DNA from: an uncultured Gemmatimonadaceae bacterium
GTDB lineage: Bacteria > Gemmatimonadota > Gemmatimonadetes > Gemmatimonadales > Gemmatimonadaceae
NCBI GenBank assembly: GCA_963829055.1
Contig: CAWHHI010000020.1
Location: 192,001-256,000, forward strand
Reading direction: 5' to 3'
Length of the DNA: 64,000 bases
Below the pieces are notes generated by a model that had not been told where the DNA came from, searched no databases, and worked only from the letters and a program-made list of their open reading frames with translations. Shown here one piece after another: positions 1 to 16,985 of the stretch (positions are counted from its first letter, which is position 1; each line of letters opens with the position of its first letter). Made by a program: the position numbers and the translations under genes.

Positions 1-679
1 GTGAGCCAGCGGGAGCGTGGTCCGTTCTCGTGCCAAGGTAGGACTCAACTGGCCAGGGAGCTCCAACGAACGCTACTCCAACAAAGACATGACGTCGAAC
101 GGCGCCTGATAGCTCAAGCTTCCGGATGACATCTCGCCGATCAGGTGCATTCAGGAACTCCTCGATCCACCCGGGTACGGCAGAGCCATAGGGATCCACC
201 GCACCTCCCGTACTCGTCATGACAAGGTGCACTTGACCGGTCCCGGACTCGCGAAAGCACGCTATGGAATCGATCCGGAGGGCTTCTAGGACAGCATAGA
301 TACGTGGGTTCTGACGCTCCAACCACCAATCAACCGGCGTGAAGCCCTTGATGTGGGCCAGCTCGCAGTCTTGGAGCGCCTTTTCTAACCTCTTCTTGAT
401 CTCCTTCACTCGGGCGTTAGGCCTTAAGACCACGTCCCAGTCGCCGGCCACGTTGAGTGCGAGTGGCCCCAGTGCTGGACCAATATTCCAAGTCTCCACG
501 CGAGCGCTGTCCACAGCGCCGACGCATTCGATGGCTATGTCAGGCGCCGTTTCGTCGCCGACGCGGAGATCATACAGCCCAGGCCCGCGCCCGTCGTCGT
601 GGAGGACTACTGGGCGTCCGAGCTCGCGCTGGAGAATGCGTCGCGCGCATTCCTCGAAGGTTATGCGTGATTGCCTCAT
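1..679 (-). CDS. Gene-cassette ORF, hypothetical protein, 3' end beyond the window; possible PD-(D/E)xK-like nuclease
   Basis: Own translation: ATG at 679, 16 nt after the attC core GTTAGGC, open to base 1 (MRQSRITFEECARRILQRELGRPVVLHDDGRGPGLYDLRVGDETAPDIAIEC...). Absent from the ORF track because no stop is in the window. Codon usage is AT-richer than in flanking genes. Confidence 0.75.
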   Translation of the reverse strand, partial: MRQSRITFEECARRILQRELGRPVVLHDDGRGPGLYDLRVGDETAPDIAIECVGAVDSARVETWNIGPALGPLALNVAGDWDVVLRPNARVKEIKKRLEKALQDCELAHIKGFTPVDWWLERQNPRIYAVLEALRIDSIACFRESGTGQVHLVMTSTGGAVDPYGSAVPGWIEEFLNAPDRRDVIRKLELSGAVRRHVFVGVAFVGAPWPVESYLGTRTDHAPAGS

Positions 680-695
680 CGCGACCGCGTTAGAT

Positions 696-795
696 GCCTA
701 ACGCCGAGCATCACCTGCGGGCGGATCAAATAAAAGGCAGCGGCGCAGCCGCTGCCACTCCGCGGCCCGCCCGTCTGGTGCATGCAACGTTAGGT
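696..795 (-). other. attC site (complete)
   Basis: Minus strand: R'' ACCTAAC-GTTGC-ATGCACC ... GGTGAT-GCTCGGC-GTTAGGC R'. Imperfect palindrome with one extra base in the L'' arm, directly downstream of the 824-1822 gene. Confidence 0.92.
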
Positions 796-823
796 AGCGG
801 GTGCGTGATGCCAGCCCGTCTCC

Positions 824-1822
824 TCAGAATACCGCGATGGGATTCACGGGCGCGCCAGTTCCACCCTTGATGCGAATCGGCGCGACCATGAAGAGGAACG
901 TCGGCCGCGATCGGCTGACCACCTCCGACGCCAGCTCCTCGAGGTTCAGGTTGTCCATGAGCGGGAGACCCAAGCCAACAATGGCGAGGAGATGGAGCGG
1001 CGTAACGACGCCTGGCACGACGGACGGCGACGCCTCGTTGGCGACGTCGCTCCCGAGGGCCGCGACACCACGCTCCTTCAGCCAAAACGCGAGGGACGGA
1101 TGTGGGCCTGAGGCATCATAGCCGACGAGCCACGGGCCACTCGCGGCCAGACGTGCCGCCCGCCCCGTCCGGATGAGGAGCACATCGCCCGGCTCGATCC
1201 GGACTTGGGACTGCCGTTCCCACGCGTCGAGGTCGGCCGGCGTGACTGACTGACCGGCCGGCAGGAATGGGATGCCCTTGAGCCGGGGGATGTCGACGAG
1301 AACTCCGCGGGTGACGATTCCTGCACGCATGACCTCGATGCCGAGGCGGCGAGCTCCCTCGGGCGCGATCTGGTCGCGGCCGACGCCGTTGTAGAGCTGA
1401 CCGCGGTAGACGAAGTGGGATAGGGCGTCGAGGTGGCTGAAGGCGAAACCGTGCGCGAGGATGGCGATTGAGTCGATCGCTCCGGACGTGGTAGAATCGA
1501 ACCGGCTGACGGCGACGCGGAGCCGAAACGGCGCGAAGGCGTTCGGCTCCGGCCCGGCGACGAGGTCGTTCGCGAGAGAGATGGTGATGCCGTCGCGGAC
1601 GCTCTGTGTGGCGGCACGGCGCTTCGCCGGTGTGATGAGATTGAGGGTGCCGAGTTCGTCCTGCGCGCCCCATCGGCCGGAATTGGAGATGCGAGCCATC
1701 CACGTGTTGAACGTGTCCCGGGGCACGGCGGTCGAACGGGCCGCCGGTGCCTGGGCGGCGGCCGGAGCGACATACGCGATGACCACGAGAAGGACCATCG
1801 CGCGCAACGCCATGAATCGCAT
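824..1822 (-). CDS. Cyclase family (kynurenine formamidase-like) metal-dependent hydrolase with signal peptide; gene cassette
   Basis: GRWGAQDELGTLNLIT, HGFAFSHLDALSH, RGVLVDIP, PGDVLLIRTG and GGTGAPVNPIAVF motifs; hydrophobic N-terminus. Confidence 0.88.
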   Translation of the reverse strand: MRFMALRAMVLLVVIAYVAPAAAQAPAARSTAVPRDTFNTWMARISNSGRWGAQDELGTLNLITPAKRRAATQSVRDGITISLANDLVAGPEPNAFAPFRLRVAVSRFDSTTSGAIDSIAILAHGFAFSHLDALSHFVYRGQLYNGVGRDQIAPEGARRLGIEVMRAGIVTRGVLVDIPRLKGIPFLPAGQSVTPADLDAWERQSQVRIEPGDVLLIRTGRAARLAASGPWLVGYDASGPHPSLAFWLKERGVAALGSDVANEASPSVVPGVVTPLHLLAIVGLGLPLMDNLNLEELASEVVSRSRPTFLFMVAPIRIKGGTGAPVNPIAVF

Positions 1823-1860
1823 CTGGAGGTCTCTTGGGTGGATGTGAAGAAAAACAGTAG

Positions 1861-2090
1861 CGGCTACCTAACGCCAATTCTACAACGTGCGCGAAACGCC
1901 GCTACGGCTTGAAGCCTCCAATACCGCACGCCCACGCCTCCTAACTCGGCACAATGCGGCGAACGCGTGGAGCGCGGCTGGAACCGCTGTCAATTCAACG
2001 ACCTACGGCGACGCCACCGAACCACGACCAATAGGCGGCGAGCGTTGCCGTCTAACACAATGGCGGCCGAGCATGATTTTGAGGGTCATG
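1861..2090 (-). other. Second attI-like segment (diverged copy of 15781-16010); crossover core GTTAGGT at 1872-1866
   Basis: Near-gapless alignment to 15791-16010 at offset 13920. The core is complementary to R'' of the attC at 789-795 (cggctacctaac vs ccgctacctaac). No attC palindrome upstream of the core. Confidence 0.75.
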
Positions 2091-2117
2091 GGCCGCGCCA
2101 GCGCGAACGACACAGCA

Positions 2118-4238
2118 TCACGCCAGATTCATCCGCCCGAGCAGCGCCTGGAACCTCGGTTGTCCGTGCAATGACGTAAACAGAAACGACCCCTTGATAC
2201 CATAGGTCGGACCCGCACGCTCGGCGACCGCCCGCTCGAGCCAGTCCATCGCCTGCTCGACGTCACCGAGACCCGCGTACACGTACGCGAAGTGATACGG
2301 CGCGACGTACGTGGTCCGCGCGTGCTCCTCGAGCTGCCGCAAGGCCGCTCGCGCTCTATCGAAGTCTCCGGCCATCCCGTATGCCTCGCCCAACTGGCCG
2401 AGCCAGAGCGTGTTCCCACGTGACAGCACGACCGCGCGCTCCAACTCAGCCAGGCCCTCGCTCTTCCGGTCACTGAGGAAGTACGCCCAGCCGAGCGTGG
2501 CGTGAGCGCGATCATCGTTAGGGTCGAGCTCCACCGCCTCCTCGCCGCGAACGATCGCCTCATCGTAATCGCCGGCGCGCAGGAACGCCGTCACAATGTC
2601 CAGGCGGTGCGCCAGCGGGTCCAGCTCCTGAGCGCGGCGCAGCAGCGCGATCGCGTCATCATAGCGACCGAGGCCCGCGCAGAGGCGCCCATACAGATCG
2701 TAGGCGTCGGCGCCACTCGGATTCAACTCGAGCGCGCGTTTGAAATCCCGCTCGGCGCCAGCCCAATCGAACTCGTGCACCGTCTTGAGGAATCCCATGG
2801 TGCAATGCGCCGCTCCCAACTCGGGATCGAGGCGAAGCGCGCTCGCCGCGGCGTCCGCCGCGCGACCGTACGCAACGGCGGGGGCCACGGTCCCTCCCTC
2901 AGCCAACTCGATGTATGCCATCGCAACGTGGGCGAACGCGAGCGCGAAGCTCGGGTCGCGCGCGGTCGCGCGATCGAACAGCGCGATAGCGCGCGTGAGC
3001 GACTCCGGCGTGAACTTGATGAACCGCTGCCTCCCTTCGAGAAAGAGCCGATACGCATACACATCCTTCGTCGGCTCTCTCCGAACCCGCGTCTGCTCGT
3101 CGCGTGATAGCTCCACCTCCAGCGCGTCAGCGATGTGAATCGCCACGTCCGTCTGGATCGCGAAGATGTCCGTCAGCTGCCTGTCGTACGTCTCCGACCA
3201 CAGCTGCCGATCCGACTCGGCGTCGATGAGCGTGGCGACGATGCGCACGCGGTCTCCGGCGTGTCGCACGCTCCCGTCGAGCAGCGTGGCGGCACCGATC
3301 TTCGCGCCGACCTCCTTCAGCGAATACTGGCGCTGCTTGAACGGCATCACCGACGCGCGCGAGATCACCTTGAGCGCGTGAATCTTCGACAGATGCGCGA
3401 TGACGTCTTCAGTGACGCCATCCGCGAAATACTCGTTGTCGGCATCCGCGCTGAGGTTGAGAAACGGCATCACCGCGACCGTCGAGGATCGGTCAGGGAA
3501 TGACACGTTAGGCGTCACCGGGCGCCTGACCGACGTGCGCACCTGTTCCGCAAGGGCGAGCACATCGGGATCCGGCTCGAGCTCCAGGTCCGCACGCATG
3601 CGGTTCGCGTGATCGGTCGCATGCTGAATCGCTCCAGCACGATCGCCCGCATCGTCGAGCGCGTGCATCAGCATTCGCGCGTACGCGCCGGAGTGCGGAT
3701 CGGCAGCCACCAGGCGGCGGCAGGTCCCGACCCTGCCGTGCACCTGCCCTGCCTGCTTCTGATCCGACGCGAGCGCGAGCAGCGCGCCGATGTACGCATG
3801 GTCGAGCTCGTTGCGATGCTGGTCGAGCCAGTAGCCGAACTCCGTCGAGTCGCCGAGATGAAATCCGTCGAGCAGCGGTCCCGTATAGAGCTGGACAACG
3901 CGCTCATGCGCGTTTGCCCCGATCGCGGTGCGCAGCTCCTGCAGGTCACAGTTCACGGCCGACGGGTGGAACAGCAGTCCGTCACCCGTCGACGCGATCG
4001 CCTCCTCGCCGACGGCCCCGCGCAGTACGTGGACCGCCAGGTTGAGGAGCCGGCGCGCGTTGGGCAGGTCCCGCTCGGGCCAGAGCAGCGCCATTGCCCG
4101 ATCGCGCGAGAGGGGCTGCGGCCAGCTGGCAACGATGAGCGTGAGTAACGCGATCCTGTGACGCTGCGCCGGCGGTCCCCCGAGAGGAGCATCGCCAGAG
4201 CGCAGACACGCGCCGCCGAGCAGTTGAACTGTGACCAT
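2118..4238 (-). CDS. SARP/BTAD-domain transcriptional regulator with TolB_N-like domain and TPR repeats
   Basis: LSRDRAMALLWPE and LYTGPLLDGF (wHTH/BTAD); VAVMPFLNLSADADNEYFADGVTEDVI; C-terminal TPRs. Confidence 0.85.
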   Translation of the reverse strand: MVTVQLLGGACLRSGDAPLGGPPAQRHRIALLTLIVASWPQPLSRDRAMALLWPERDLPNARRLLNLAVHVLRGAVGEEAIASTGDGLLFHPSAVNCDLQELRTAIGANAHERVVQLYTGPLLDGFHLGDSTEFGYWLDQHRNELDHAYIGALLALASDQKQAGQVHGRVGTCRRLVAADPHSGAYARMLMHALDDAGDRAGAIQHATDHANRMRADLELEPDPDVLALAEQVRTSVRRPVTPNVSFPDRSSTVAVMPFLNLSADADNEYFADGVTEDVIAHLSKIHALKVISRASVMPFKQRQYSLKEVGAKIGAATLLDGSVRHAGDRVRIVATLIDAESDRQLWSETYDRQLTDIFAIQTDVAIHIADALEVELSRDEQTRVRREPTKDVYAYRLFLEGRQRFIKFTPESLTRAIALFDRATARDPSFALAFAHVAMAYIELAEGGTVAPAVAYGRAADAAASALRLDPELGAAHCTMGFLKTVHEFDWAGAERDFKRALELNPSGADAYDLYGRLCAGLGRYDDAIALLRRAQELDPLAHRLDIVTAFLRAGDYDEAIVRGEEAVELDPNDDRAHATLGWAYFLSDRKSEGLAELERAVVLSRGNTLWLGQLGEAYGMAGDFDRARAALRQLEEHARTTYVAPYHFAYVYAGLGDVEQAMDWLERAVAERAGPTYGIKGSFLFTSLHGQPRFQALLGRMNLA

Positions 4239-4252
4239 CGACCTCGTCTGGC

Positions 4253-4305
4253 TGTTAATCCGTAGCTAATTCCGGGCGGACCGCCAGCTAATCGCTCCAG
4301 CTCAT
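4253..4305 (+). promoter_or_regulatory. Candidate SARP-type heptamer direct repeats
   Basis: TGTTAAT (4253), AGCTAAT (4264) and AGCTAAT (4286), spaced 11 and 22 bp, plus AGCTCAT (4299), between the divergent regulator and lipoprotein genes. Confidence 0.55.
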
Positions 4306-4353
4306 GTTCCCCGCACGTTCGAAGAAACATGACCTACACCCTGCGAGGCCACC

Positions 4354-4923
4354 ATGAGACGGACCATTGGATGCCTTTCCACGATCGCGCTGCTGTATGC
4401 ATGCAGTGAAGAGCGCATCACCAGCGAAACGAAGACGGTCGGTCTGCCGTCGACGGCCGCGTCAGCGAACACTCAAACGGCGGATGAAAACAAGGACCTC
4501 GCTACGCTCCGCCGAGTGACCGCGGCGTTCCATGACTTCGAGGCCGCGGACCGTGCCGGATGGTCGGTGCAGATCACGCCCTGCATGATGGACGCGACAC
4601 AGGGTGGCATGGGGTTCCACTACGGTAACCCGAAGCTCATCGACGGATCCGTCGCCGTCGATGAGCCGGAGCTTCTGCTCTATGAGCCGGAGAAGAACGG
4701 CCGCCTACGCCTCGTCGCGGTCGAGTACATCGTGCCGCTCACCGAGTGGAAATCAGCGGAGCCACCACGGCTCTTCGGACGCGACTTCAAGGTGAATGAG
4801 GAGTTCCAGGTCTGGGCGCTCCACGCGTGGGTGTGGGAGAACAACCCGAGCGGCATGTTCGCCGACTGGAATCCGCGGATCACGTGCGAGAACACCACCG
4901 CCGTATCCACGATGCCTCATTGA
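4354..4923 (+). CDS. Hypothetical lipoprotein
   Basis: LLYAC lipobox-like signal; conserved-looking GGMGFHY, PELLLYEP, LVAVEY and LHAWVWENNPSGMFADWNP motifs. Confidence 0.8.
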   Translation: MRRTIGCLSTIALLYACSEERITSETKTVGLPSTAASANTQTADENKDLATLRRVTAAFHDFEAADRAGWSVQITPCMMDATQGGMGFHYGNPKLIDGSVAVDEPELLLYEPEKNGRLRLVAVEYIVPLTEWKSAEPPRLFGRDFKVNEEFQVWALHAWVWENNPSGMFADWNPRITCENTTAVSTMPH

Positions 4924-4953
4924 GCGACTTCTCACGCCTCACGGAGTACAGCG

Positions 4954-5256
4954 ATGCCGAAGTACCTCATCGAACGCGAGATCCCGAACGCGGCGGCACT
5001 CTCCACCGCGGACCTCCGGACCATCGCGCAGCGGTCGTGCGCCGTGCTGCGACAGCTCGGCCCGCACATTCAGTGGGTGCAGAGCTTCGTCACCGAGGAC
5101 AAGCTCACCTGCCTCTACATCGCGCCTAACGCAGACATGATCCGCGAGCACGCACGGCTCGGCGGATTCCCGGCAGAGCACGTGCTCGAGGTGGCGACGA
5201 TCATCGACCCAACGACGGCCGAGCCGAACAAACTCGCCGCCGTAGCGAGCGCGTAG
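4954..5256 (+). CDS. DUF4242 domain protein
   Basis: MPKYLIEREIP...IQWVQSFVTEDKLTCLYIAP...IREHARLGGFPA pattern. Confidence 0.85.
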   Translation: MPKYLIEREIPNAAALSTADLRTIAQRSCAVLRQLGPHIQWVQSFVTEDKLTCLYIAPNADMIREHARLGGFPAEHVLEVATIIDPTTAEPNKLAAVASA

Positions 5257-5276
5257 CTCGCTCACGCAGGCCGCGA

Positions 5277-6146
5277 TCAGCGGCCTGCGGGTACCACCTC
5301 TCTCGTCGGAGCAGATGCTGGGCGTGCCGCGGTCGTTTCGTTAGGTGTCTCGACCGCGGCACGCGCGCGATAGAAGACGAACGCCGTGATGCCGATCGTG
5401 ATCGCGAGCGCCGCACCGAACTCGCTCGTCAGCCATTTCGTCGGACCAGTGTTGACCGTCACACGGTCGAAGAACGCCTGCACGAACAGGTTGTGCGACG
5501 CGTGCAGGATGGCCGCTGGCCACACGCTCCCCGAGCGCAGCCGCAGCCACGCGATCGGGAATCCCATCGCCACGACCATCGCGCCGAAGCACATCACCGA
5601 GTACCACGTCGGCGTTCCGCCGTTGTAGTCGGCGAAGACGATGAGCGGCACGTGCCACGCCGCCCAGATCGCGCCGCTGATCACCGCGGTTCGCTGAAAG
5701 GACATCGTCTTCGCGAGCGTCGGCACGAGGAAGCCGCGCCACCCGAGCTCCTCGCCGGTCGCCGAGAGCAGACTCTGGAGCGATCCGACCACGATAAACG
5801 TGACGACGGGGGTCTTGAACCGGCTGAGATCCACACCTCCAAGCCCCGTGAGCCACACCAGCCCGTACGCGACGGTGGCGTAGGCTACCGGGAGCAGATA
5901 CGCGAGGATCAACCAGCGCGGCGCACCCGGGCGCCATCCCTCTCCACGGACGTTGCGCTGAAACACGAGACGCGTGATGAGCGCGCTCACGCCCGGGCAC
6001 CACATGAGCGCGAGCACGTACATGCCTCCACTCGCGCCCAGGCTGCCGGCGGAGATGATCAACCAGTAGAACACCGCGCTCAGGCCGAAGGTCAGGCCGA
6101 GATACGTCGTCAGTTCCGCTCGCGTGTCGTTCGCGCGCGTGTCCAT
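5277..6146 (-). CDS. CPBP (CAAX/Abi) family intramembrane metalloprotease
   Basis: GEELGWRGFL, WAAWH and ILHASHN motifs; several TM segments. Confidence 0.92.
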   Translation of the reverse strand: MDTRANDTRAELTTYLGLTFGLSAVFYWLIISAGSLGASGGMYVLALMWCPGVSALITRLVFQRNVRGEGWRPGAPRWLILAYLLPVAYATVAYGLVWLTGLGGVDLSRFKTPVVTFIVVGSLQSLLSATGEELGWRGFLVPTLAKTMSFQRTAVISGAIWAAWHVPLIVFADYNGGTPTWYSVMCFGAMVVAMGFPIAWLRLRSGSVWPAAILHASHNLFVQAFFDRVTVNTGPTKWLTSEFGAALAITIGITAFVFYRARAAVETPNETTAARPASAPTREVVPAGR

Positions 6147-6254
6147 GGGCTCCTTCCAATCTGTGAGAGGTCTGCTACGGTGTTTACGTCAGTCGGCAAA
6201 GCCCCGCGATTCCGCGAAGCTACGCCGGGGCCGTCCCACCGCAACGGCAGCACC

Positions 6255-7838
6255 CTACGGTTTCGTCAGCTTGGCGAGATCCTGCGCGTATTTCGCCGAC
6301 GTCGCCTTGTCGCCAGCGACAGCCGCGGCGCGCATCGCCCCGTCCAGCGATCGATAGCGATTCGGATCGCGCGCCAGGGCCGCACGATACTCAGCGAGTG
6401 ACTCGCCCGGACGGCCGAGCGTGAGCAGCATGTCGCCGAGCAGCTCGCGGGCCGGCGCGAGCGGACCCGGAGTCACCGCCGCTTTCTCCGTCGCGTCCTC
6501 ACGCTCGGCCGCCTCACGCATCTCGCCGAGTGCTGTGTCTCGACGACCGCGTGCGAGATCGAGCCACGCGCTGGCGCCGATCCGCTGGATCGCCACCTGC
6601 TCGGCCCAGTAGGCCTCGTGGGTCGCGACCAGTCGACCGCGGATGGCTTCCAGTGAATCGATGGAGGCACGCGCTCGCGACGAATCGCCGGTGTGGGCGG
6701 AGCCTAACGCGATCGCGAAGTGGGTCACTGCTTCCGCGTACGGGAAGGCGCTCGTCGTTGGCTGCAGTGCTGCGGCCTCTGCCCACGCGCGCCGCTCGAG
6801 CGCATAGCGCGCCGGGATCGCCGCGAGGGCAAAGACGCCGGCGGAGCCCGGAGCGGCGCCGGTCACCGCGTTCGGATCGAAACGCGCGGCGAGCTCGGGC
6901 AGGCGCAGGACGATGGCGTGCGCCGCGGAGTCGCGGCGCATTTGGAGGTCGGCGTACACCGCGTAATCAGCCGCGTGCAGTGCCTCGGCGATGGACGCCT
7001 CGCGGGTCGCGGCGTCCATGGAGCGGAGATTGGTGGCGACCGATTCGTTCCACATCCCGACGCGTGTGAACGTGTGCGACGGCATGTGCAGCGCGTGCGC
7101 GGCGGACGGCGCGATGTCAGCGTAGCGGCGCGCGGCAGCAGCGGCGCGCCCCGCGAGCGCAGGGACGTCGTACGTATGGATGATGTAGTGCGCGAGACCC
7201 GGGTGGTTGGGCTGAGCCGCGAAGAGCGCCTCGAGCTCCGCACCTGCACGGAGCTGATCGCCGTAGCTCTTGTCCGTCGGCGACGCCGCCGCGACCAGCG
7301 CGATTGCGTGGAAGATCCTGGCTTCGGTATCGGTGGGGAATTTCGCGGCCAGCTCAGCCATCGCACGCTCGTACGCCTGGACGCGCGTCGGCTGATCGCG
7401 AGTGGTGGGGTCGGTGTAGAGCTGCGAGACGGCGGCGATGTAGGCACGTTCACGATCGCTCGCCTGAATGCCGAGGCGTGTCGCGGTCTCGACCGCCTGC
7501 CGACCGCGTTCGACCAGTGCTGGTGGCCTGACGTTGGGAACCATCGGGTTCGTCCATCGACTCAGCGCGATGCCCCACCAGGCCATGGCGCAGGTCGAGT
7601 CGGTGGCGAGCACCTCGTCGAACGTCCGAATCGACGCGCCGAACTCGAACGAGTGCAGCAACGCGACGGCACGGTCGAATTGCGGCGTGACTGCCGGCGC
7701 GCAGGATGTCGGGAAATGGACCGTCCCGAGCTTCTCGGTGGTCTGTCGCGGAGCGCCAGGCACCTGCGCGACGAGGCTGGTTGCGATCATGCTCGCGGTC
7801 AGCATGGCAGTTCCCGCGATTCCAGTGATGCGCGTCAT
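6255..7838 (-). CDS. Secreted TPR-containing hypothetical protein
   Basis: Signal peptide; LGTVHFPTSC, NHPGLAHYIIH and HALHMPSHTF motifs; helical repeats. Confidence 0.8.
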   Translation of the reverse strand: MTRITGIAGTAMLTASMIATSLVAQVPGAPRQTTEKLGTVHFPTSCAPAVTPQFDRAVALLHSFEFGASIRTFDEVLATDSTCAMAWWGIALSRWTNPMVPNVRPPALVERGRQAVETATRLGIQASDRERAYIAAVSQLYTDPTTRDQPTRVQAYERAMAELAAKFPTDTEARIFHAIALVAAASPTDKSYGDQLRAGAELEALFAAQPNHPGLAHYIIHTYDVPALAGRAAAAARRYADIAPSAAHALHMPSHTFTRVGMWNESVATNLRSMDAATREASIAEALHAADYAVYADLQMRRDSAAHAIVLRLPELAARFDPNAVTGAAPGSAGVFALAAIPARYALERRAWAEAAALQPTTSAFPYAEAVTHFAIALGSAHTGDSSRARASIDSLEAIRGRLVATHEAYWAEQVAIQRIGASAWLDLARGRRDTALGEMREAAEREDATEKAAVTPGPLAPARELLGDMLLTLGRPGESLAEYRAALARDPNRYRSLDGAMRAAAVAGDKATSAKYAQDLAKLTKP

Positions 7839-7888
7839 TCGGACCTCCGTGTCGTGATGTCCGCTCGCGGCCTAACGACTACTCGGCC

Positions 7889-8695
7889 TCACTGGAGCGC
7901 GCGTGTCAGCGCGGCTGGTCCTACCGCGCGAAAGATCGTCGCGTGAGTGAGGTCCGGTCGGGGCGTATAGACCGACGTGAGTCCGCGTGGCCGTACAGTG
8001 CGCACGAGCTCCGCGAGGCGTGCCGTGCCGGTCGCGATGTCCTCGACGTTCGAGCTGGCAAGGTAGAGCGTTCGCGGTATATCGTCGAAGGCCGTTAGGC
8101 GTGCCTGTGCCGAGTCGACGACCGCGCCGGCGTTCCACCACAGGCTCGGATCGAGCGCGACGTAGTGCTGGAACAGCTGCGGATCGGTGAGAAGCGTCTC
8201 GACAACGAACAGTCCAGCCAGTGACTCGCCGACGATGGCCCGCTCCGCGGTGGTGTGGTAGCGAGTTTCGATCTCGGGAATGAGCTCGTCGCGAATGAAT
8301 CGGCGGAAGGTGGCGGAGCCGCCCACGTGTGGCGCAATCGCGCTATCGGTCGCGACGCGGGTGGGCCCGGTGAGATCGCGCCGGCGCTCGGTATTCGGGA
8401 TGCCGACGATGATCACCGGCCGGATCGCGCCTAACGCAATCAGCGAGTCGACCGTGTGTACGACGTGCGGAAAGTCTTCGTCGAGCCCGCCGTCGGGCAT
8501 GTAGAGCGTCGGGAGTCGTGTCGCGGATGACGCGCGATGGCCTGGTGGCGTGTGCACGTTGACGCGTCGCGCTTCGCCGAGTGCTGGAGAGGCGATAGTG
8601 AACGTATCGTGTGCGGGTATCGGATCTGCCGGCGGCGTTGGTTGCTGCGCGCCCAGGGGCCCGGCGAGAAGCGCAAGGAATGCGAGGCGTCTCAT
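7889..8695 (-). CDS. Alpha/beta hydrolase (IroE/Fes-like putative esterase)
   Basis: LYMPDG, RRRDLT, GESLAG nucleophile motif, PSLWW. Start at ATG 8695, just after the core site at 8710-8716. Confidence 0.88.
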   Translation of the reverse strand: MRRLAFLALLAGPLGAQQPTPPADPIPAHDTFTIASPALGEARRVNVHTPPGHRASSATRLPTLYMPDGGLDEDFPHVVHTVDSLIALGAIRPVIIVGIPNTERRRDLTGPTRVATDSAIAPHVGGSATFRRFIRDELIPEIETRYHTTAERAIVGESLAGLFVVETLLTDPQLFQHYVALDPSLWWNAGAVVDSAQARLTAFDDIPRTLYLASSNVEDIATGTARLAELVRTVRPRGLTSVYTPRPDLTHATIFRAVGPAALTRALQ

Positions 8696-8709
8696 GGACA
8701 GTTCTCTCC

Positions 8710-8732
8710 GCCTAACGCCCAGGCTCAGTCGC
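8710..8732 (-). other. Half attC (L'-R' arm only), overlapped by the lgt-like 3' end
   Basis: + strand gcctaacgcccaggctcag resembles the arms at 12514 and 15188; no complementary arm found. Confidence 0.55.
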
Positions 8733-9593
8733 CAGCACCGGAGTCGCGACGCGCGCACCCGGTCGCGCAGCGGGCCCAGTGCGCGCGCGCATGATGACGA
8801 TGCCCACGATAAAGATGGCGATGGCGATGCACTGCGCCACGCTCAGCGCGAAGAAACGGTCGTCCTTGATTCGCAGGAACTCGACCGCAAAGCGCTCGAT
8901 TCCCGCCAGCACGCCGTAGACACCGAACAGCCAGCCGTCCGCATGCGTGTGGCGACGCAGGCGCCAGAGGATCGCGAACATCACCAACCCGAGTACGACC
9001 TCGATGAGCTGTGTGGGTACGACACCGACGACAGTCGACGGATCCATCGACGGCGGAAAGACCGCGTGAAACGCCTCGGTCATGCTGCCGACGGTCGATG
9101 CCGGCATGCCTTGCGGGAACGCGACGGCGAGCGGGCCTTCATACCACTTCCCGTAATCATCGCCGACGGCCCAGCATCCGCTGCGTCCGACGGCGTAGCC
9201 AGCGGCGATCGCGATTCCGGCGACGTCAGCGTACCGCGCGAAGGGGAGCTTTCGAAAACGGATCGTCGCCCAGCAGGCGATCACGGCGCCGATGAATCCG
9301 CCCCAGAACACGAACCCGGAGCGCGAGAACAGGTCATGCCAGTTGTGGGTGATGACCGCGACGAAGTACAGCTTCCCTCCGATCATCGTCCCGACGACCG
9401 CCGCGAGCAGGACATCGCTGACGTGTCGCGCTTCGTGTGTGTAGCCGCGTCGGAGCAGCTCGCGCTCCGACACGATCTGCGCGATGACGAACGCGAGCAG
9501 CACCGCGATCCCGAACCCGGAGAGCTCCAGATGGAACCCGCCGATGTGGATCGGGATGTTGAATGGATGGACGGTGACGGGTTGGCCGGTCAT
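8712..9593 (-). CDS. lgt: Prolipoprotein diacylglyceryl transferase family protein
   Basis: GGKLYF, FWGGFIG, GYAVGRSGCWAVGDDYG, PTQLIE and ERFAVEFLR motifs. The stop TAG lies inside GTTAGGC. Confidence 0.85.
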   Translation of the reverse strand: MTGQPVTVHPFNIPIHIGGFHLELSGFGIAVLLAFVIAQIVSERELLRRGYTHEARHVSDVLLAAVVGTMIGGKLYFVAVITHNWHDLFSRSGFVFWGGFIGAVIACWATIRFRKLPFARYADVAGIAIAAGYAVGRSGCWAVGDDYGKWYEGPLAVAFPQGMPASTVGSMTEAFHAVFPPSMDPSTVVGVVPTQLIEVVLGLVMFAILWRLRRHTHADGWLFGVYGVLAGIERFAVEFLRIKDDRFFALSVAQCIAIAIFIVGIVIMRARTGPAARPGARVATPVLATEPGR

Positions 9594-9626
9594 GTCAGAG
9601 GCTGGAGTGCCCGGGTGTGCGTCTGA

Positions 9627-10217
9627 TTAAATCAAGCTCGAAGCTCGTGACGCGTCGACCATCGCCCGCTTCGAAGCCTGGGCGAAGCGACGCTGCAGCC
9701 GACGGCCGAGTGGGTAACCGAGTCGCGCCAGCACGTGCGCCGGACGCGAGAACGCGTAGAGGTCGTACCAGACGCGGTCGTCTGCCTGGTGCCACTCGAC
9801 CGAGAAGCGCTCTTCGCCGAGCGCGCCATGTTCGGGCAACGTCCCGTAGGCGAATCCCGTTCGACGCACCCCGTTTGTCTCTTCGTCCATGACGTACACG
9901 ATACGACACGCGTTGAGCGACCAGAAGCCATAGTGGTGCGCCACGACCGCGACTGTCGTTCCCACTTCGATCGAGGCTTCACGCGGCTGCACGGAAGACC
10001 AGCCGAGTGTCATCATCCGCCACGCGCGGAGGGCCAGCAAGGCACGCTGGAACGTCTCGGCGCCCATACCGAGCTCGACACGGTTTCGGTCGACGTTGTA
10101 GCCTGCGGGTGCCTCGCCGCGAGTCGCACCGACCTCGGGATACGAGAAGGGCGCGTCCCGCTGAGAGTTCAGGAAGGCGTCGATCTGCTGCGCGGTCGGC
10201 TGGGTGAGATGGAACAC
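9627..10217 (-). CDS. DUF1990 family protein
   Basis: FSYPEVGAT, CRIVYV, GFAYGTLPEH, GEERFSV and AFSRP motifs. Confidence 0.9.
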   Translation of the reverse strand: MFHLTQPTAQQIDAFLNSQRDAPFSYPEVGATRGEAPAGYNVDRNRVELGMGAETFQRALLALRAWRMMTLGWSSVQPREASIEVGTTVAVVAHHYGFWSLNACRIVYVMDEETNGVRRTGFAYGTLPEHGALGEERFSVEWHQADDRVWYDLYAFSRPAHVLARLGYPLGRRLQRRFAQASKRAMVDASRASSLI

Positions 10218-10338
10218 AGGGTCGTCGCGGACGAGGATCGTTGCCTAACTACAGGTCCAGCGACATGAACACCGCGTTGGGGTCGGCGGTGTAATCGGCG
10301 AACGGGCGGCCACAGACGAACCGGTATGGATCTGCTGC

Positions 10339-10755
10339 CTAACGTGTCATGTCGTCGTCGGCAACCCTCAACCGTGCGACGATGTCACGGTACGCCGAGG
10401 CGATCAGCGTCTCGAGCGACGGGCCGTCGATGGCGAGACCAGGTTTGACCTTCACGTGGCGCATGTATTTGCCCGTACCCTGCATCAAACCCGCCGGATC
10501 CGGCAGCGTCGTGCCGTGGAAGAAACCGACGTTGACGTGATTCCTGAAGACGCTGACGTAGGCAAACGGCGCGTCTTCTACGCATACCGTGGCGTACCCA
10601 TCATGCATGAGCTCTCGAACATCGGCGCCGCATCGGCGCATGAGCGCAAACCATGTGCGCGCAATCGAGCCGAGCTCGCTCGGTTGCGCATCGAGCCACT
10701 GACCGATGGCGGGAGCCCGCTCGACGGCTCCGGTAAACCGCAGAAGTGCGGTCAC
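10339..10755 (-). CDS. DUF1801 domain protein
   Basis: HVNVGFFHGTTLPDPAGLMQGTGKYMRHVK motif. The stop TAG lies inside GTTAGGC (10337-10343). Confidence 0.88.
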   Translation of the reverse strand: MTALLRFTGAVERAPAIGQWLDAQPSELGSIARTWFALMRRCGADVRELMHDGYATVCVEDAPFAYVSVFRNHVNVGFFHGTTLPDPAGLMQGTGKYMRHVKVKPGLAIDGPSLETLIASAYRDIVARLRVADDDMTR

Positions 10756-10788
10756 GATGCGAACGTCCTTCGCGATAATGTTTGTGCT

Positions 10789-10820
10789 GCCTAACGCATG
10801 AGTTCAGCTGCAGAGCGCCT
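10789..10820 (-). other. Half attC (L'-R' arm only)
   Basis: gcctaacgcatgagttcagctgca closely matches the arms at 13101 and 14357; no partner arm. Confidence 0.7.
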
Positions 10821-11051
10821 GCCGATAGCGCCGCTAGTATGCTCGGCGCCCTGCAGGGCATCCCGCTCGATGCAGTGTCTCCTGTTCGGTGTCGCGCCGC
10901 ACGATATACCTAATCCACCGCCGACGTCACGTGCTCGGGCACCACAATCCACCCTATCAAGGTCCAACTGTTCATCGCGAGTGGGGGTGTGAGAATAGCG
11001 CAGTCTATCGTTCTGCCGGAGAACAGTGCACCGGGAGGGGAGGCGAATGCC

Positions 11052-11540
11052 ATGATTCGACGATTACTGATTGCCATGTCGCTGTCGCTACTGCCGTGGG
11101 GTGCGGCATGGGCTCAACAGCCCGACACTGCCGCGAAAACGACCACCACGCAGGAGCCTGAATGGTCGATTCCCCCGCGCCGCATTGACCTCTATGCCGG
11201 GCTCAGGTCAAACGGCGGCACCAGCTTCCTGATGGGCCTGAAGTATTCGCGCCGGCTACCCTCGACAACGAATTTCGCCGGCGCTGGATTCTTCGAGGTC
11301 GCCTTTGCCAGCCCCACCGAATATCTGCTGGGGGCCCTGGCGCAGTACATGCCGCTGAACCGACTGCTTCTGGAAACGGGTCCCGGGTGGGCCATAGATG
11401 GGGGCAGCGATTTCTTCTGGCGCGTGAGCGGAGAATACGAGCTGAAAATCCGTCGATTGTCACTGATACCGAAGTTTTACGTCGACTTCGTGCAAAGCAC
11501 GACCGTGTTCGGCTATGGACTCGCCATCGGTCGCCACTGA
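11052..11540 (+). CDS. Hypothetical secreted protein, probable small outer-membrane beta-barrel
   Basis: Signal peptide (AWA-QQ) and alternating beta-strand pattern; opposite orientation to the array. Confidence 0.65.
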   Translation: MIRRLLIAMSLSLLPWGAAWAQQPDTAAKTTTTQEPEWSIPPRRIDLYAGLRSNGGTSFLMGLKYSRRLPSTTNFAGAGFFEVAFASPTEYLLGALAQYMPLNRLLLETGPGWAIDGGSDFFWRVSGEYELKIRRLSLIPKFYVDFVQSTTVFGYGLAIGRH

Positions 11541-11735
11541 CGAGCCGCCGGGACTGGTGGACACGCTTCACATGGCTTCGATGGTCGACATGCTTCGAGC
11601 TTCATTGGCACGCGCACGCCCGAGTACGCGGTCGTACTCCGCGGCCGCGTGACTCACACCCTCGGCGTCTGGCGGTGCCCGGCGCATCGCCGAGCCTCAG
11701 CGACGGCGCACGAGTCGGCGCTCGGCGGTGCGTCG

Positions 11736-12304
11736 CTACGGCGATGACGGGCGGCGGGGCAGGAATTCGGGCGGTATGGGCTTGTCGGGGCGCTCGGTGT
11801 CCTACAGCAGGCCGACGACCCACCAGCGGGCGCCGTCGTGAAGAGCTGGATGCTGTTGATGCCGCGGGCCGGGTGAGCGTCCGTCGAATCGCGATGCATC
11901 TCGTAGGTGCTGAAGACGTGCACGATATTGCCGAACGCCTCGCTCGTGCGCACGATCTCACGCTCGCTGAATCCATGGCGCGGCGGGCCGCTCGACGCCC
12001 GCTGGACGTAGTCCTCGACCGTCAGTATACGGATCACCTGCGGGCCGTTCCCCGACCCGCTGGTCGGCATGAGGCGGGCGCCCGGTACGAACAGCGACCG
12101 GAAGCGATCGGCGTCGCGCTTCTGATCGGCGAGGATAGTGTTGGCGTCGTAGAGCGCGGCGATGATCGCGTCGACCGACGCCACATCACTGGGCCGAGCA
12201 GCCACGGTGGCGGCCGCGGTGGCGCTCGGGACGGCCTGTGCCGCCGCGTGTAGCCACGGCGACGCACTCAGGCCTGCCAGCACAACGCGGGTAATGTGTC
12301 TCAT
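11736..12304 (-). pseudogene. NTF2-like secreted hypothetical protein, disrupted
   Basis: DVASVDAIIAALYD, RFRSLF and RGINSIQL motifs. A frameshift near 11840 restores HDGARWWVVGLL, followed by an in-frame TAG before DTERPDKPIP. Confidence 0.65.
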
Positions 12305-12329
12305 GAGCGCCTCGCAGGGTCGGTGGGCG

Positions 12330-12481
12330 TGCAGCGCTCCTCGCCGACGGAGTGGGTGGGATCCGGCACCGTGCGCGACCGGGTTGTCCTCGAACACCGT
12401 CGTCGCTTCCTCGAAGCTCAGCCGGTGTTTGCGGAGGTTGCGCCGTGGCCTGTCGGGGTGCCACTCGAACTGACGGGCCAT
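12330..12481 (-). pseudogene. brnT: BrnT-family toxin N-terminal fragment
   Basis: QFEWHPDRPRRNLRKHRLSFEEATTVFED, then TVPDPTHSVGEER in another frame. The rest of the gene and the antitoxin are absent. Confidence 0.7.
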
Positions 12482-12513
12482 TGGATGAGATCATACGCGA
12501 TGCGTGTGCATCC

Positions 12514-12552
12514 GCCTAACGCCCAGCTCACCTGCGGGCCACACCCGAGCCA
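12514..12552 (-). other. Half attC (L'-R' arm only)
   Basis: gcctaacgcccagctcacctgcgggc resembles the arm of attC 696-795; the upstream gene's stop abuts it with no R''/L''. Confidence 0.7.
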
Positions 12553-13074
12553 TCAGGAGCCGCAGTAGCGCCGTCCCCGGCAAACGAGGGTCGCGAACGC
12601 TTCGCTGCGGATCCGCCAGCGCCCCTCGGCGTCGCGGCGCCAGATCGCGTAGTACGTGCCGCCCACCTCAGTCGGTTCGCCGCCCTCGCGCCACGTCTCC
12701 TGCCATCGTCCCGATTCTGTCGCCACGGCGCACGTCGGTCGGTCACAGCCGACCACCTGCACTGGCTCGTACGTCAGCCGGAACTCCGGCCGGGCGGTCA
12801 TGTTCTCGAGAAAGACGCTGAGGAACGCCGCGCGCCCCAGGCGCGTCACGCGCGCGGAGACCTGGACGGCGCTGTCCTCGACGAGCTGTCCGAGGGCACC
12901 GCTGTCCCGTGCAATGAGCGCCGCGTTCCAGCGCGCGCGGGCCGCACGCACGTCAGCCGCGGCGTCAGCGTGGGGCGCGGCCCTTCCCCCGGTGGCGCAC
13001 GCGGCGACTGCGGCGCAGGCGATGACGAGAGTGGCTCGCCGCGGGTCGTAACGCCCTGGTTCTCTCAGTGTCAT
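12553..13074 (-). CDS. NTF2-like/DUF4440 family lipoprotein; gene cassette
   Basis: VRAARARWNAALIARD and GTYYAIWRRDAEGRWRIRSE motifs; VAAC lipobox. Start at 13074 or 13080. Confidence 0.75.
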   Translation of the reverse strand: MTLREPGRYDPRRATLVIACAAVAACATGGRAAPHADAAADVRAARARWNAALIARDSGALGQLVEDSAVQVSARVTRLGRAAFLSVFLENMTARPEFRLTYEPVQVVGCDRPTCAVATESGRWQETWREGGEPTEVGGTYYAIWRRDAEGRWRIRSEAFATLVCRGRRYCGS

Positions 13075-13100
13075 GCGCAACGTAGATGACAGTGGCGGCG

Positions 13101-13191
13101 GCCTAACGCATGAAGTTGATGCAAGGGCACCTCATAGGATGCGGCGCCGCCGCCTCCACACCGCCCTTGCCAGGTCCAGCACACGTTAGGT
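13101..13191 (-). other. attC site (complete, somewhat degenerate)
   Basis: gcctaac...gcaagggc...gcccttgc...gttaggt. R'' flank gggcacctaac is identical to the cassette start at 13712-13722, and the stop TAA lies in R''. Confidence 0.85.
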
Positions 13192-13683
13192 GCCCGGCGG
13201 TTCACGAGGCGGTGTTGCACACGGGACGCGCACAGCACGAAAGTTTGGTGACAGCGCCGGTCGGTGCCCCGACTCGTCCACGGTCACTGTTTTGAAATCG
13301 CTGAGCGGCTCGAGGCGTCCGGCTAGCGTGTCGCCCCGGACGCCGAGCCGGCCCCCATACCCCGTCGAGAATCGATCGGGCTGTGGCTCGAGCAGCAAGA
13401 CCTCCACGGAGTCGCGGAATGTCGTCCAGATCGCATTCGCCCGCCCCGAGGGTGTCCGCGGGAGCGGACGCCAACGGCGCTGGCTCGGCTGCTCGGCTGC
13501 AACGGAGGCCGAATCGAGGAACACGTCGCTGGTCGGAATGACGGCTGCCGGTCCGTCCCAATGCAGAACCCGATAGCAGCCGGCAGCGGCGCGCTCGGCG
13601 TCAGAGAGTGTAATCGAAGGGTGAGAGTGGCCTGGCGTCCGGCAGGCGATGCAAACGACGGCGAGTACAACCCCGACGCGCAT
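13186..13683 (-). CDS. Hypothetical lipoprotein; gene cassette
   Basis: RBS aaggagag and CIAC lipobox; the ORF fills the space between two attC sites. Confidence 0.75.
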   Translation of the reverse strand: MRVGVVLAVVCIACRTPGHSHPSITLSDAERAAAGCYRVLHWDGPAAVIPTSDVFLDSASVAAEQPSQRRWRPLPRTPSGRANAIWTTFRDSVEVLLLEPQPDRFSTGYGGRLGVRGDTLAGRLEPLSDFKTVTVDESGHRPALSPNFRAVRVPCATPPREPPGT

Positions 13684-13715
13684 GTCGAGCTCTCCTTACG
13701 CACATGGACGTGGGC

Positions 13716-13814
13716 ACCTAACGCCTGAAGTTGAGCTGCGGGTGAGTTCAATAGAATGCGGCGCCGCAGGCGCCGCCACGGCAGATCGCCCGACAGCTCC
13801 AACGGACGTTAGCC
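13716..13814 (-). other. attC site (complete)
   Basis: acctaacgcctgaagttgagctg...cagctccaacggacgttagcc, with an extra base in the L'' arm. Confidence 0.92.
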
Positions 13815-13868
13815 CGCAAGCGCGCGATGCGTCAGTCGAAATCCCACAACGGCTAGACCCGTCGAGCA

Positions 13869-14341
13869 TCAGGACCGGCGGCTTTCGCGCCACACGATTC
13901 TGAGGAAGGCCTTCAACGCCTCTTGCGCGAATTCCTGCTTCTGCGCGTGTTGGTCGATGAGCAAATACGTGATGAGGTTCCGGAAGACGCGATCGCGGAC
14001 TTGAGTGAAGTACCAGTCCTGAAGCTCTCGAACTCGCGCGACGCCTCGATCTGAAGCGTACAACAACTTGTTTCGCTCATTCTTGATGCCGGCAACGTGC
14101 AGACCGCTCGGTCGCCGGACATCTCGTCTGAACGGCAGCTACCGCCAGTGCACTTTCGCAGCAATGGGTTGAGTGTATCGGGCCGTGGGCTGACGTCGCG
14201 AGACGGAGATTAGCGCCGAGTGCGGTGCCTTCGCGAAGCGACGGACGCTCCTGCCAGCGACCTTCGCCGCGCACGAGTTGCGCGCACGGGCCTGGGCTGC
14301 ACGAGGGCCGAGTGCAGCGGCGAGATTTCTAGCTCTTCCAT
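13869..14341 (-). pseudogene. Disrupted cassette gene; only the C-terminal part is readable
   Basis: No full ORF between the attC sites; protein-like C-terminus KNERNKLLYASDRG...YLLIDQHAQKQEFAQEALKAFL. Confidence 0.45.
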
Positions 14342-14356
14342 CAAGACCCTGTTGCG

Positions 14357-14394
14357 GCATAACGCATAGAGTTCAGCTGCAACGTTCGCTAGGC
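14357..14394 (-). other. Internally deleted 38-bp attC
   Basis: gcataacgcatagagttcagctgcaacgttcgctaggc: both ends present, R'' mutated to GCCTAGC, centre collapsed at cagctg. Confidence 0.65.
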
Positions 14395-14404
14395 GGGCGC
14401 GCCG

Positions 14405-14812
14405 CTATGCAGATTTGCGTCTGTCACCGAGAAGGGACTGGGACGTGACAAACAGAGACTCCACGGCAGCAGCGATCTGCCCACGGACATCGCCGCGAAC
14501 CGGCGTCAACCCATGCGCAACGGAACTACGAAGCCGGTATGCCTCGTTCAAGGCGGCAAATGTGCCTTGGTCAAGGACACCCTCCGACGCAAGCCGGCGT
14601 AGTAAGCTGCGCGTGTCAGGACGGTCGGGAGACGGCTCAGAAAGGAGCCGCATCGTTGCTTCGGCTGCGGTCCATGCGAGAAGGAGCGCGGCTTCGACAT
14701 GCCCGGAGGAAACGAGCTTGCGAGCCTCGTCGAACCGCCGTCGAATGGAATCGTCGTCAAGCGGTCGCAAGTCTTCGCCGGGAAGAAGCTGCTCTCGGGG
14801 CTTCGGGGCCAT
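14405..14812 (-). CDS. HEPN-like protein (resembles the C-terminal half of REase_AHJR-like proteins)
   Basis: AALLLAWTAAEATMR helix and R-x4-H motif (RSSVAH); start uncertain. Confidence 0.6.
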   Translation of the reverse strand: MAPKPREQLLPGEDLRPLDDDSIRRRFDEARKLVSSGHVEAALLLAWTAAEATMRLLSEPSPDRPDTRSLLRRLASEGVLDQGTFAALNEAYRLRSSVAHGLTPVRGDVRGQIAAAVESLFVTSQSLLGDRRKSA

Positions 14813-14929
14813 GAGAACAAAACGGCTCAGGCCGACGTGTAACCACGCTGGCGGAGAGTCGGTCGACTCGAGACTCCCGGTCAGCGCATGAACGACGGTG
14901 AAAGATAGGCCGTGAGTAGAACAGGTCGT

Positions 14930-15158: not shown

Positions 15159-15187
15159 CGGCCGAACTGTGAGGAGCCGACTGCTCC

Positions 15188-15279: not shown

Positions 15280-15339
15280 GGTGCCGTGCGTCGGATGCTC
15301 GACGCCCGGCACCCGCGCGAAAGTTGATAGCGGAATACA

Positions 15340-15780: not shown

Positions 15781-16007
15781 ATCCGGCTCAACGCTGTTTG
15801 TATTGCGTGGGAAGGACCATCTTGCGGCTTGACCATTCAGATGCGACACGTCCCTGCCGTCTAACTCGGCTCAATGCGGCGAGGTAGCGCGTCATCGCTG
15901 GAAGTACCGTGCTCACAATGTAGTGCGACATCCGCCCCTAGGGCTCCTGTGTTAGGCGGCGAGGCGTGCCGCCTAACCCAATGGCGGCCGAGCATCGTTT
16001 CTGAGGG
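15781..16007 (-). other. attI region of array 1; crossover core at 15792-15786
   Basis: Non-palindromic. Minus strand AATACAAACAGCG|TTGAGCCGG matches the R'' flank of the first attC (ccggctaac) apart from one extra base. Homologous to 1861-2090. Confidence 0.7.
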
Positions 16008-16985
16008 TCACGGCTCCGGACGACGGCGCTCGAACGCTACGTCCAACGGACTCCGGACGCGACAACTCCCTTCGCCTGGACGAAGGTACTCGAGGGTCGT
16101 CGAGAGATCCCGGTGGCCGACCAGGTTCTGTACGTCCCGCGCGTCGCTCCCGGTCCGCAGGAGATGCATCGCGAACGAGTGCCGCAACATCCGTGGTGTC
16201 ACCCGCGCCGTCAGACCTGCCGCACGCCCCGCACGCGACACGGCACGCTGAATCGTCGTGGCATTCACGTGGTGGCGGCGCCGCTGACCGCTCGCGCGAT
16301 CCATGTGCTGGCGCGCAGCCGGAAAGAGCCACGTCCACCGCCAGTCGCGCACGGCGCGCCCTGACGCGAGCAGCTCGACGTAGCCACCACCGGAAACCGT
16401 GTCGCGCATGTGCTGCCGCCGCACCGCGTCGACCTGCGCCGCGATCGCGTCCCGGAGCGCGTCCGGCAACAGCGCGAATCGACGCAGCGTACCATCGTCG
16501 CCGCGAATGCGAATGCGCCGTCGGCCGATATCAACGTCACTCACGCGCAACGTCGCGCACTCCATCAGCCGGAGCCCGGTGCCGTACAGGAGCGACACGG
16601 CCAAGTGCCGCGCAGGTGCGACCGCCGCCAGCAGCCGAGCGACCTCGTCGGGCGCCAGTACTTCCGGCGGGCCGATTCGCCGAGGCGTCTTCGGAAGCTT
16701 CGGCACGCGCCACTCCGCTAGGCCGAGTACGTCGCGATAGAGAAACACGAGCGACGCCCTCGCCTGTCTCGAGGTGCTCGGTGTCGCGCGCCGCTCAGTC
16801 ACCAGCCAGTCGAGGAAGCGCCCGCTCTCCGACGCATCGACGGTGCTCGGATGACGAAGCTCGCAGAAACGCACGAAGCGCACGATCCACCATCGATAGG
16901 CACCCGCGGTGCGCGCACTCAGACGCCGCGACCGCGCCACCACGCGAACCCGCGCCAATAAACGCTCATCGCCTGTCGCATTCAT
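16008..16985 (-). CDS. intI: Integron integrase, divergent or degenerate
   Basis: SAM-like N-terminus (RTAGAYRWWIVRFVRF, QARASLVFLYRDVL), LLYGTGLRLMEC, integron-specific WTWLFPA...RRRHH segment, LRHSFAMHLL, GHRDLSTTLEY, VRSPLD. Confidence 0.9.
   Translation of the reverse strand: MNATGDERLLARVRVVARSRRLSARTAGAYRWWIVRFVRFCELRHPSTVDASESGRFLDWLVTERRATPSTSRQARASLVFLYRDVLGLAEWRVPKLPKTPRRIGPPEVLAPDEVARLLAAVAPARHLAVSLLYGTGLRLMECATLRVSDVDIGRRRIRIRGDDGTLRRFALLPDALRDAIAAQVDAVRRQHMRDTVSGGGYVELLASGRAVRDWRWTWLFPAARQHMDRASGQRRRHHVNATTIQRAVSRAGRAAGLTARVTPRMLRHSFAMHLLRTGSDARDVQNLVGHRDLSTTLEYLRPGEGSCRVRSPLDVAFERRRPEP

Follow-up and report, generated by a model that had tools for sequence, protein, structure and literature searches.

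Can an integron platform that has no integrase gene of its own still gain and lose gene cassettes? Cassette clusters without an integrase are commonly taken for dead remnants or off-target insertions; to our knowledge, attI sites are not predictable outside a few classes. The window, i.e., the whole stretch of 64,000 nucleotides analyzed here (G000:C20:192001-256000), belongs to the genome G000 of an uncultured Gemmatimonadaceae bacterium (7.78 Mb, 20 contigs, 85.86% complete). It carries two copies of an attI-like module, one of which has no adjacent intI; no tblastn match was found nearby, and the closest intI-family gene is 13.9 kb off. The following features are relevant:

1866..2090, minus strand: solo attI module, copy c4, ~210-225 bp, read toward lower coordinates
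15786..16010, minus strand: copy c5, at the 3' end of an integrase-like gene
16008..16985, minus strand: IntI-family gene, transcribed toward its own array (inverted type)
2118..4238, minus strand: BTAD-TPR regulator gene upstream of c4, outside the module; the orthologues in G001 and G002 are without the module
797..1871, minus strand: first cassette of c4, with a putative cyclase gene at 824-1822 (PF04199); the match stops at 1869 in runs X3 and X5
696..796, minus strand: attC closing the cyclase cassette (attC HMM E 1.5e-12)
C20:190545, 189213, and 188963: further attC of c4, left of the window (attC HMM E 1.7e-12, 4.7e-17, and 0.027)
13101-13192, 13716-13815, and 15188-15280, minus strand: three intact attC of the c5 array (attC HMM)
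10789-10854, minus strand: partial attC of the c5 array (attC HMM)

The solo module and its copies

A sequence-only reading of the window had proposed an ungapped likeness between 1871-2030 and 15791-15950. This likeness is real: 85 of 160 positions were identical, against 34-51 at offsets of -5 to +5, and the global alignment of 1867-2090 with 15787-16011 scored 176 (z = 15), compared with 15.7 ± 10.6 and a maximum of 59 for 1000 dinucleotide shuffles. The named blocks were located as claimed, at 1905/15825 (CGGCTTGA), 1941/15861 (CTAACTCGGC), 1952/15872 (CAATGCGGCGA), 1977/15897 (GCTGGAA), 2032/15953 (TAGGCGGCGA), and 2081/16003 (GAGGGTCA), and the TCA at the end of the second copy is indeed the stop of the integrase ORF (16008-16985). 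The distance between c4 and c5, given as 13.9 kb, was measured at 13,920 bp, and the gene placed where intI would be is a BTAD-TPR gene (2118-4238, minus strand) that terminates 28 bp past the module. Extra boxes described at about 73 and 185 bp from the crossover lie at 73 and 184 bp. The crossover motif is present, but with three free bases instead of four (TA.AA...GCG|TT). Both of the proposed tandem platforms exist, but they belong to six copies in the genome, three of which are in tandem within 22.5 kb; an integrase-family gene does adjoin the copy at 15.8 kb, but two of its catalytic residues are missing. With the same cassette, metagenome contig L114 has an R box one base shorter than that of c5 (window 15786-15792), and the extra base of c5 is either a mutation or an assembly error.

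Profile searches of G000 located the module at C20:105.0, 120.0, 185.3, 193.9 (c4), and 207.8 kb (c5) and at C17:248.6 kb, with a pairwise identity of 56-71%, and retrieved no further full-length module. Only c5 is in contact with an integrase gene, at the 3' end of that gene; five copies are without intI, and tblastn detected no intI remnants near the solo copies of G000. For attC detection, an HMM built here replaced a strict hairpin scan, which missed most sites; over the 7.8 Mb of G000, it gave 33 hits, 24 of them at E<1e-3. At five of the six copies, an attC lies 0.5-1.5 kb downstream in cassette orientation, the exception being c6. c4 heads attC cassettes in matching orientation (696-796 plus three outside the window), and its array, as judged with our own attC HMM and not IntegronFinder, corresponds to the definition of a CALIN, with at least two attC and intI outside the clustering distance; upstream of the array, the next attC is 10 kb away. 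Five attC clusters in G000 are without the module:

C10:178-190 kb, C9:90-93 kb, C9:208-210 kb, C20:158-174 kb, and C20:890 kb: module-less attC clusters or single attC, no intI nearby

Several other elements were observed around the arrays. Two attC ~80 bp apart in the c2 array (C20:119251-119514) form an ORF-less cassette. CTAAC or ATAAC starts lie just before minus-strand genes at window positions 7872, 8712, 10245, 10339, 10791, 12516, and 14359; part of them lead into partial attC sequence, and they are probably decayed older cassettes of the c5 array. At 11654-12481 (minus strand) of the window, just the first 35 codons resemble the BrnT toxin family, below the cut-off, and the frame looks frameshifted or fused. 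In C20, an extra GCG|TTAGG box occurs ~250 bp upstream of c1, c2, and c3, where the host gene lying upstream ends or is about to end, and GCG|TTGG boxes likewise follow the stop codon in G003:C608 and G003:C886; the upstream GCG|TTAGG box is a possible far boundary of the module.

A profile of eight copies, run on 41 genomes including seven of the genus, gave full-length matches in five of the seven and weak matches only elsewhere. With a profile of 21 copies (cut-off E<=1e-5; 15 candidates scored per genome, which makes the copy numbers minimum values), matches were obtained in 8 of 150 family genomes and in four of five chosen genomes. At least 33 copies were counted across 11 related genomes, seven behind the 3' end of intI (in seven genomes) and 26 solo; this count leaves out G002:C399 (unconfirmed), G006:C481 (partial, without attC), and weak matches at E 1e-4 to 1e-2. 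Among the 25 solo copies with downstream DNA, an attC was present within 2 kb in 20, one had a weak hit, and four (including c6 of G000) had none, which agrees with the expectation of the sequence-only reading that homologues precede attC arrays. G087 (99% complete, 3 contigs) carries three solo modules and has two intact intI elsewhere, and G004 (92% complete) carries six copies, with no IntI found. An exact palindrome pattern searched over GTDB retrieved 33 loci, of which two, both Gemmatimonadaceae records, have module and attC; the remaining loci were rejected as modules, being chance or another motif. L025, L044, and L013 (about 3001-3026), from unrelated phyla, show the same ~25-bp palindrome, but the remainder of the module is missing and there is no attC within 3 kb. 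In L222 (G046:C101, 1273-1347), the module is interrupted after its distal third, behind a degenerate intI, by a sequence that we take to be transposase-like.

In a quick tree, the copies cluster by genome, the six of G000 together with one strain copy (support 98). Orthologues of the BTAD gene (G001 and G002) and of the c1 amidohydrolase (G005) are without the module, and three host genes that bear it in G003/G004 lack it in G000. Because orthologous host genes elsewhere are without the module and copies group by genome, we infer that the platform was gained at different loci in separate lineages; the six or more copies would have spread through lineage-specific amplification. Candidate routes are the insertion of a whole integron, with the upstream intI then lost cleanly, or a transfer driven by IntI via the distal GTT boxes.

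Cassette turnover at the crossover

Contigs from 4 of 24 listed runs (four studies) were aligned to positions 500-3500 of the window; four RNA runs with <10% of the words present were excluded. Run X6 gave one 555-nt contig, which matches 1867-2150 and has 271 foreign letters before 1867, and run X3, from a different study, has the same loose end, with the contig break at 1869/1870. The X3 cyclase contig matches up to 1869 and has 73 further letters, as would be expected if the cyclase cassette stood second in that strain; the match of the X5 cyclase contig also ceases at 1869. The alternative first cassette of X3 and X6 is visible for 30 letters, short of any attC, and these letters are absent from G000 at <=3 mismatches. 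One X1 contig (1610-1896) reproduces the cyclase-module join of G000 with 27 module-side letters, under the 31-letter rule. The sequence-only reading had listed a lack of read support for the join as a point of possible failure, and this failure did not occur: the BTAD-to-module join was bridged in three of four runs (X1, X3, and X6). Support for the cyclase-to-module join was weak (one contig, 27 letters), because other strains hold something else there.

Among nine metagenome contigs of near-identical strains, five depart from G000 at the crossover (L115 at solo c2; L119 and L120 at solo c1, with a new first cassette that has its own attC; L117 and L122 at c5), and four keep the first cassette. 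L119/L120, L117/L122, and L116/L121 may be the same strains, so that the independent events are few, and the pattern search behind this sample missed c4, whose left arm differs, which places long c4 contigs outside it. The G000 segment replaced at c1 has a stop codon, not an attC, at its far end. First cassettes also differ between the orthologous solo loci G004:C22/G003:C834 and between G004:C1/G003:C886.

Cassette exchange at the crossover, by which an attI can be recognized, was thus found both in the runs covering c4 and in the strain contigs. Because the strain sequences change right at the G|TT crossover, c4 behaves as a functioning attI platform would, and the earlier proposal of an orphan attI kept under selection gains direct support from this turnover.

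Anatomy of the module

The module can be divided into the following parts, with distances counted from the crossover:

1866..1872, minus strand: R box GTTAGGT, crossover at G1872|T1871; left of 1867, the sequences of other strains differ
1877..1883, minus strand: candidate degenerate L box, 4 bp from the R box; it resembles attI behind intI of other genera, in a partly circular comparison
1936..1962: box at -73 plus inverted half-site
1977..1984, minus strand: weak box at about -112, just over the 99th percentile of the null
2029..2058: palindrome of ~30 bp in the distal part, with two IntI-type boxes placed back to back (-157/-184)
2069..2089: conserved distal GAGCA block plus tail; the tail of c5 contains the integrase stop

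GTTAGGT at 1872-1866 has the form GTTRRRY with the crossover G|TT expected of an R box, and its AAC is retained, or nearly so, in 19 of 21 aligned copies. The candidate L box, ATTCTAC, lies across a 4-bp spacer, a separation of 4-5 bp being described for attI in the relevant part of PMC12614218; two of its three purines are missing, and it is like 17 sites behind other intI that were pattern-picked from 25 flanks. A weight matrix derived solely from 41 attC ends (threshold at the 99th percentile of column shuffles) peaked in the 21 copies at +24, +74, +112, and +184 in the same orientation as R and at +131 and +157 in the inverted orientation. Base 1939 is T in the window and G in all four runs examined, and G restores the consensus of the box at -73; in more distant genera, the -73 block is a full palindrome. 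The left arm of the distal palindrome is degenerate in c4. The R/L site is conserved to the same extent as the distal blocks.

The arms of the distal palindrome covary, being paired in 92.6% of cells with 21 double changes, a result matched by 0 of 500 shuffles; the test is weakened by the relatedness of the sequences and by a structure taken from the same alignment, and symmetry of the changes is likewise to be expected at a dyad protein site. Its G-U pairs favour the plus strand. A giant attC or a long RNA fold was rejected, as the extended search found only 16 pairs in 229 columns, and no attC-like pairing between the module ends was found. Rfam covariance models gave no match at E<=1 in window 1-20000, no terminator pattern was found in the module, and no frame is open across the six genome copies, every frame being stopped in at least five of six. 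A scan for a Pc promoter of the sigma-70 type at 1800-2200 returned no sites, which is a weak test because the promoters of this phylum may differ.

In the class 1 integron, attI1 spans 65 bp, and two accessory repeats are described as binding IntI1 and favouring attI x attC recombination (sections of PMC12901181 and PMC8946536). Because the attI1 repeats bind IntI1, we lean, by analogy, toward the conserved blocks up to -184 being accessory IntI-binding boxes, similar to DR1/DR2 but more numerous and partly palindromic; the blocks may thus be the IntI-binding footprint that had been proposed. Promoter or operator elements for cassette expression are a possible but less probable explanation of the blocks, and a bottom-strand hairpin is doubtful.

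Source of the recombinase and rival explanations

The integrase beside c5 scored 266 bits against TIGR02249 (cut-off 265). Its catalytic set R146, K171, H277, R280, H303, and Y312 reads R, D, R, R, H, and Y (compared with VchIntIA, D for K160 and R for H267), and a gap of 5 aa lies within its IntI-specific insert. Strains keep the frame intact; the changes in it are 8 non-synonymous against 11 synonymous, a ratio of 0.27 (p=0.005), compared with 0.03-0.27 for control genes. The best eight database relatives all lack K and H, and five of them also R146; Y312 is lost in eight of the next 42 hits, and K is retained in 69 of 70 among hits 51-120. A quick tree places the protein in a degenerate group of ~20 proteins (support 81) with similar or greater catalytic loss. 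Of seven module-linked integrases, two are intact, five are without K171, and four are without H277; the intact relatives of the window integrase that stand behind the same module are those of G003 and G145. Intact IntI are encoded elsewhere in the genome in G001, G136, and G417, and none was found in G046. The inverted layout, with attI behind the 3' end of intI, recurs in the relatives examined and is a known integron type, as described in parts of PMC4889954 and PMC3575428. In L141, L174, and L065, a canonical intI is followed directly by a second tyrosine recombinase gene.

The idea of a single intI in G000 was rejected, as a second one is present at C4:2862-3182 (L140). It breaks off after ~105 codons, where it adjoins 2.8 kb of lower-GC sequence that forms the start of the contig; the locus is syntenic with the intact gene of G001 (G001:C73), and P0121 (8 members) is 99% identical to the fragment and full length, with 350 aa and a complete R-K-H-R-H-Y. 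The break probably reflects an assembly junction. Also present on this contig (L140:6613-6719) is a dispersed repeat of ~107 bp, in part palindromic, with well over 100 matches across G000.

We consider it likely that cassettes enter and leave each solo platform through the action of an unlinked, intact IntI; the recombinase acting on the orphan sites would be encoded at another locus of the genome. c4 would then be a true integron attI platform without its own integrase gene that still gains and loses cassettes; IntI made elsewhere would bind the simple site and recombine an incoming attC at G1872|T1871. The likeliest enzyme would be the intact-type intI, of which the first 105 codons are at G000:C4:2862-3182, because the window integrase is without the K171 and H277 equivalents. 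Against an unlinked enzyme, the intact IntI shares only ~41% identity with the module-linked one, and an attI generally recombines inefficiently with a non-cognate IntI, as stated in the relevant part of PMC8946536. G004 has six copies, yet no IntI was found; 4 of 25 solo copies have no nearby attC and one has a weak hit, and the five module-free attC clusters of G000 also count against it. A rather unlikely variant is a distributed two-integrase integron, in which the multi-box attI would have spread to many chromosomal loci as stand-alone docks, its own integrase would have become a conserved, catalytically dead paralogue that binds the accessory boxes as architectural helper or brake, and the unlinked IntI would do the cutting at all docks. 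In sum, the orphan attI reading was supported, but with a multi-copy family dispersed over the genome in place of a pair and with a catalytically degenerate linked integrase.

It is improbable that the solo attI is active through residual activity of the window integrase (16008-16985) despite K171D and H277R. This integrase retains R146, R280, H303, and Y312, passes TIGR02249, is intact in strains, and belongs to the cognate clade, with intact relatives behind the same module, and the IntI1 mutant K171A is described as only 5-fold down in activity (part of PMC2811028). H277, however, is a key residue, invariant in 182 Shewanella integrases as given in the relevant part of PMC9229058; close relatives also lose R146 (five of the top eight hits) or Y312 (eight of the next 42), and the 5-aa gap falls in an insert needed for attC work. 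Similarly improbable, and ranked slightly below, is an origin as relics of whole integrons minus intI, the modules serving as promoters for fixed cassettes and the strain differences arising via homologous exchange or deletion. Loss of intI is an accepted origin of CALINs in PMC4889954 (as far as its main text goes), the copies are only 56-71% identical, and the c1 replacement has no attC at its left end; on the other side, breakpoints fall at the crossover in four different copies, the R/L site is conserved as much as the distal blocks, and neither an intI remnant near the solo copies of G000 nor, in a test that is weak for this phylum, a sigma-70-type promoter was found.

The module might also be mobile in itself, as a MITE or as a cassette end (delta-attI-type or ORF-less) moved by IntI, behind which cassettes gather secondarily, but we regard this as very unlikely. 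The grouping of copies by genome, the module-free orthologous host genes in other species, and the three copies with an extra GCG|TTAGG ~250 bp upstream at a host gene end would suit it, as would the recombination of attI-terminated cassettes described for class 1 and 2 integrons in part of PMC12901181. The module ends, however, show no attC-like pairing, terminal inverted repeats and target duplications were not seen, the BTAD gene has no preceding attC, and a mobile unit could explain the spread while the site still works as an attI. Least probable of all is that a structured RNA, a terminator, or a small ORF underlies the conservation. Pairing in the distal palindrome (with its double changes and plus-strand G-U pairs) speaks for an RNA, but the pairs are few, the Rfam and terminator searches were negative, the gene upstream of c6 is divergent, and symmetric change in related sequences is equally expected of a dyad protein site; a small ORF is contradicted by the stops in every frame. 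The small ORF or ncRNA that the sequence-only reading had named as an alternative cause was therefore not upheld.

Among known systems, attI1 of class 1 integrons (as covered in PMC12901181 and PMC8946536) resembles the module in its GTTRRRY R box with crossover G|TT, the extra IntI-type boxes upstream, and the cassettes downstream; its inverted degenerate L box 4-5 bp away has a candidate counterpart in the module. In contrast to attI1, the module spans ~210 bp with up to six extra boxes, two of them as back-to-back palindromes, is without an adjacent intI, and occurs in several copies per genome. CALINs, defined in 2016 (PMC4889954), likewise have at least two attC, no intI within 4 or 10 kb, and an IntI encoded elsewhere; here, however, the array is headed by a conserved full attI, and the first cassette varies between strains. 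The relevant parts of that paper give intI loss, rearrangement, and secondary-site insertion as CALIN origins, pattern-match attI for classes 1-3 only, and do not describe conserved solo attI heads. Inverted-integrase integrons, e.g., of Treponema (relevant parts of PMC4889954 and PMC3575428), share the intI directed toward the array with attI behind its 3' end, but here it is the platform alone, intI excluded, that is amplified, and catalytic residues of the linked intI are lost in five of seven genomes. The attG insertions and SALINs described in part of bioRxiv 10.1101/2022.09.11.507474 also place chromosomal cassettes away from intI, with IntI acting at a distance; attG is short and unrelated to attI, whereas the target here is a long, conserved attI paralogue. 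Delta-attI-type cassettes (part of PMC12901181) likewise carry attI sequence inside or between arrays that is still recombinogenic, but these are truncated attI ends on cassettes of mobile integrons, and here whole platforms follow ordinary chromosomal genes; c4 was rejected as such a cassette, as the module is full length and no attC precedes the BTAD gene. In the mostly open-access literature searched, no description of a multi-copy solo attI or of a conserved dead chromosomal IntI was found.

The paralogous copies provide the footprint of a long attI, and the strain data indicate that solo copies still exchange cassettes. Two questions thereby become testable, namely whether CALINs can be live capture sites served in trans and what role the accessory boxes have. 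If a pseudo-integrase is conserved next to such a platform, it would add a new regulatory component to integrons.
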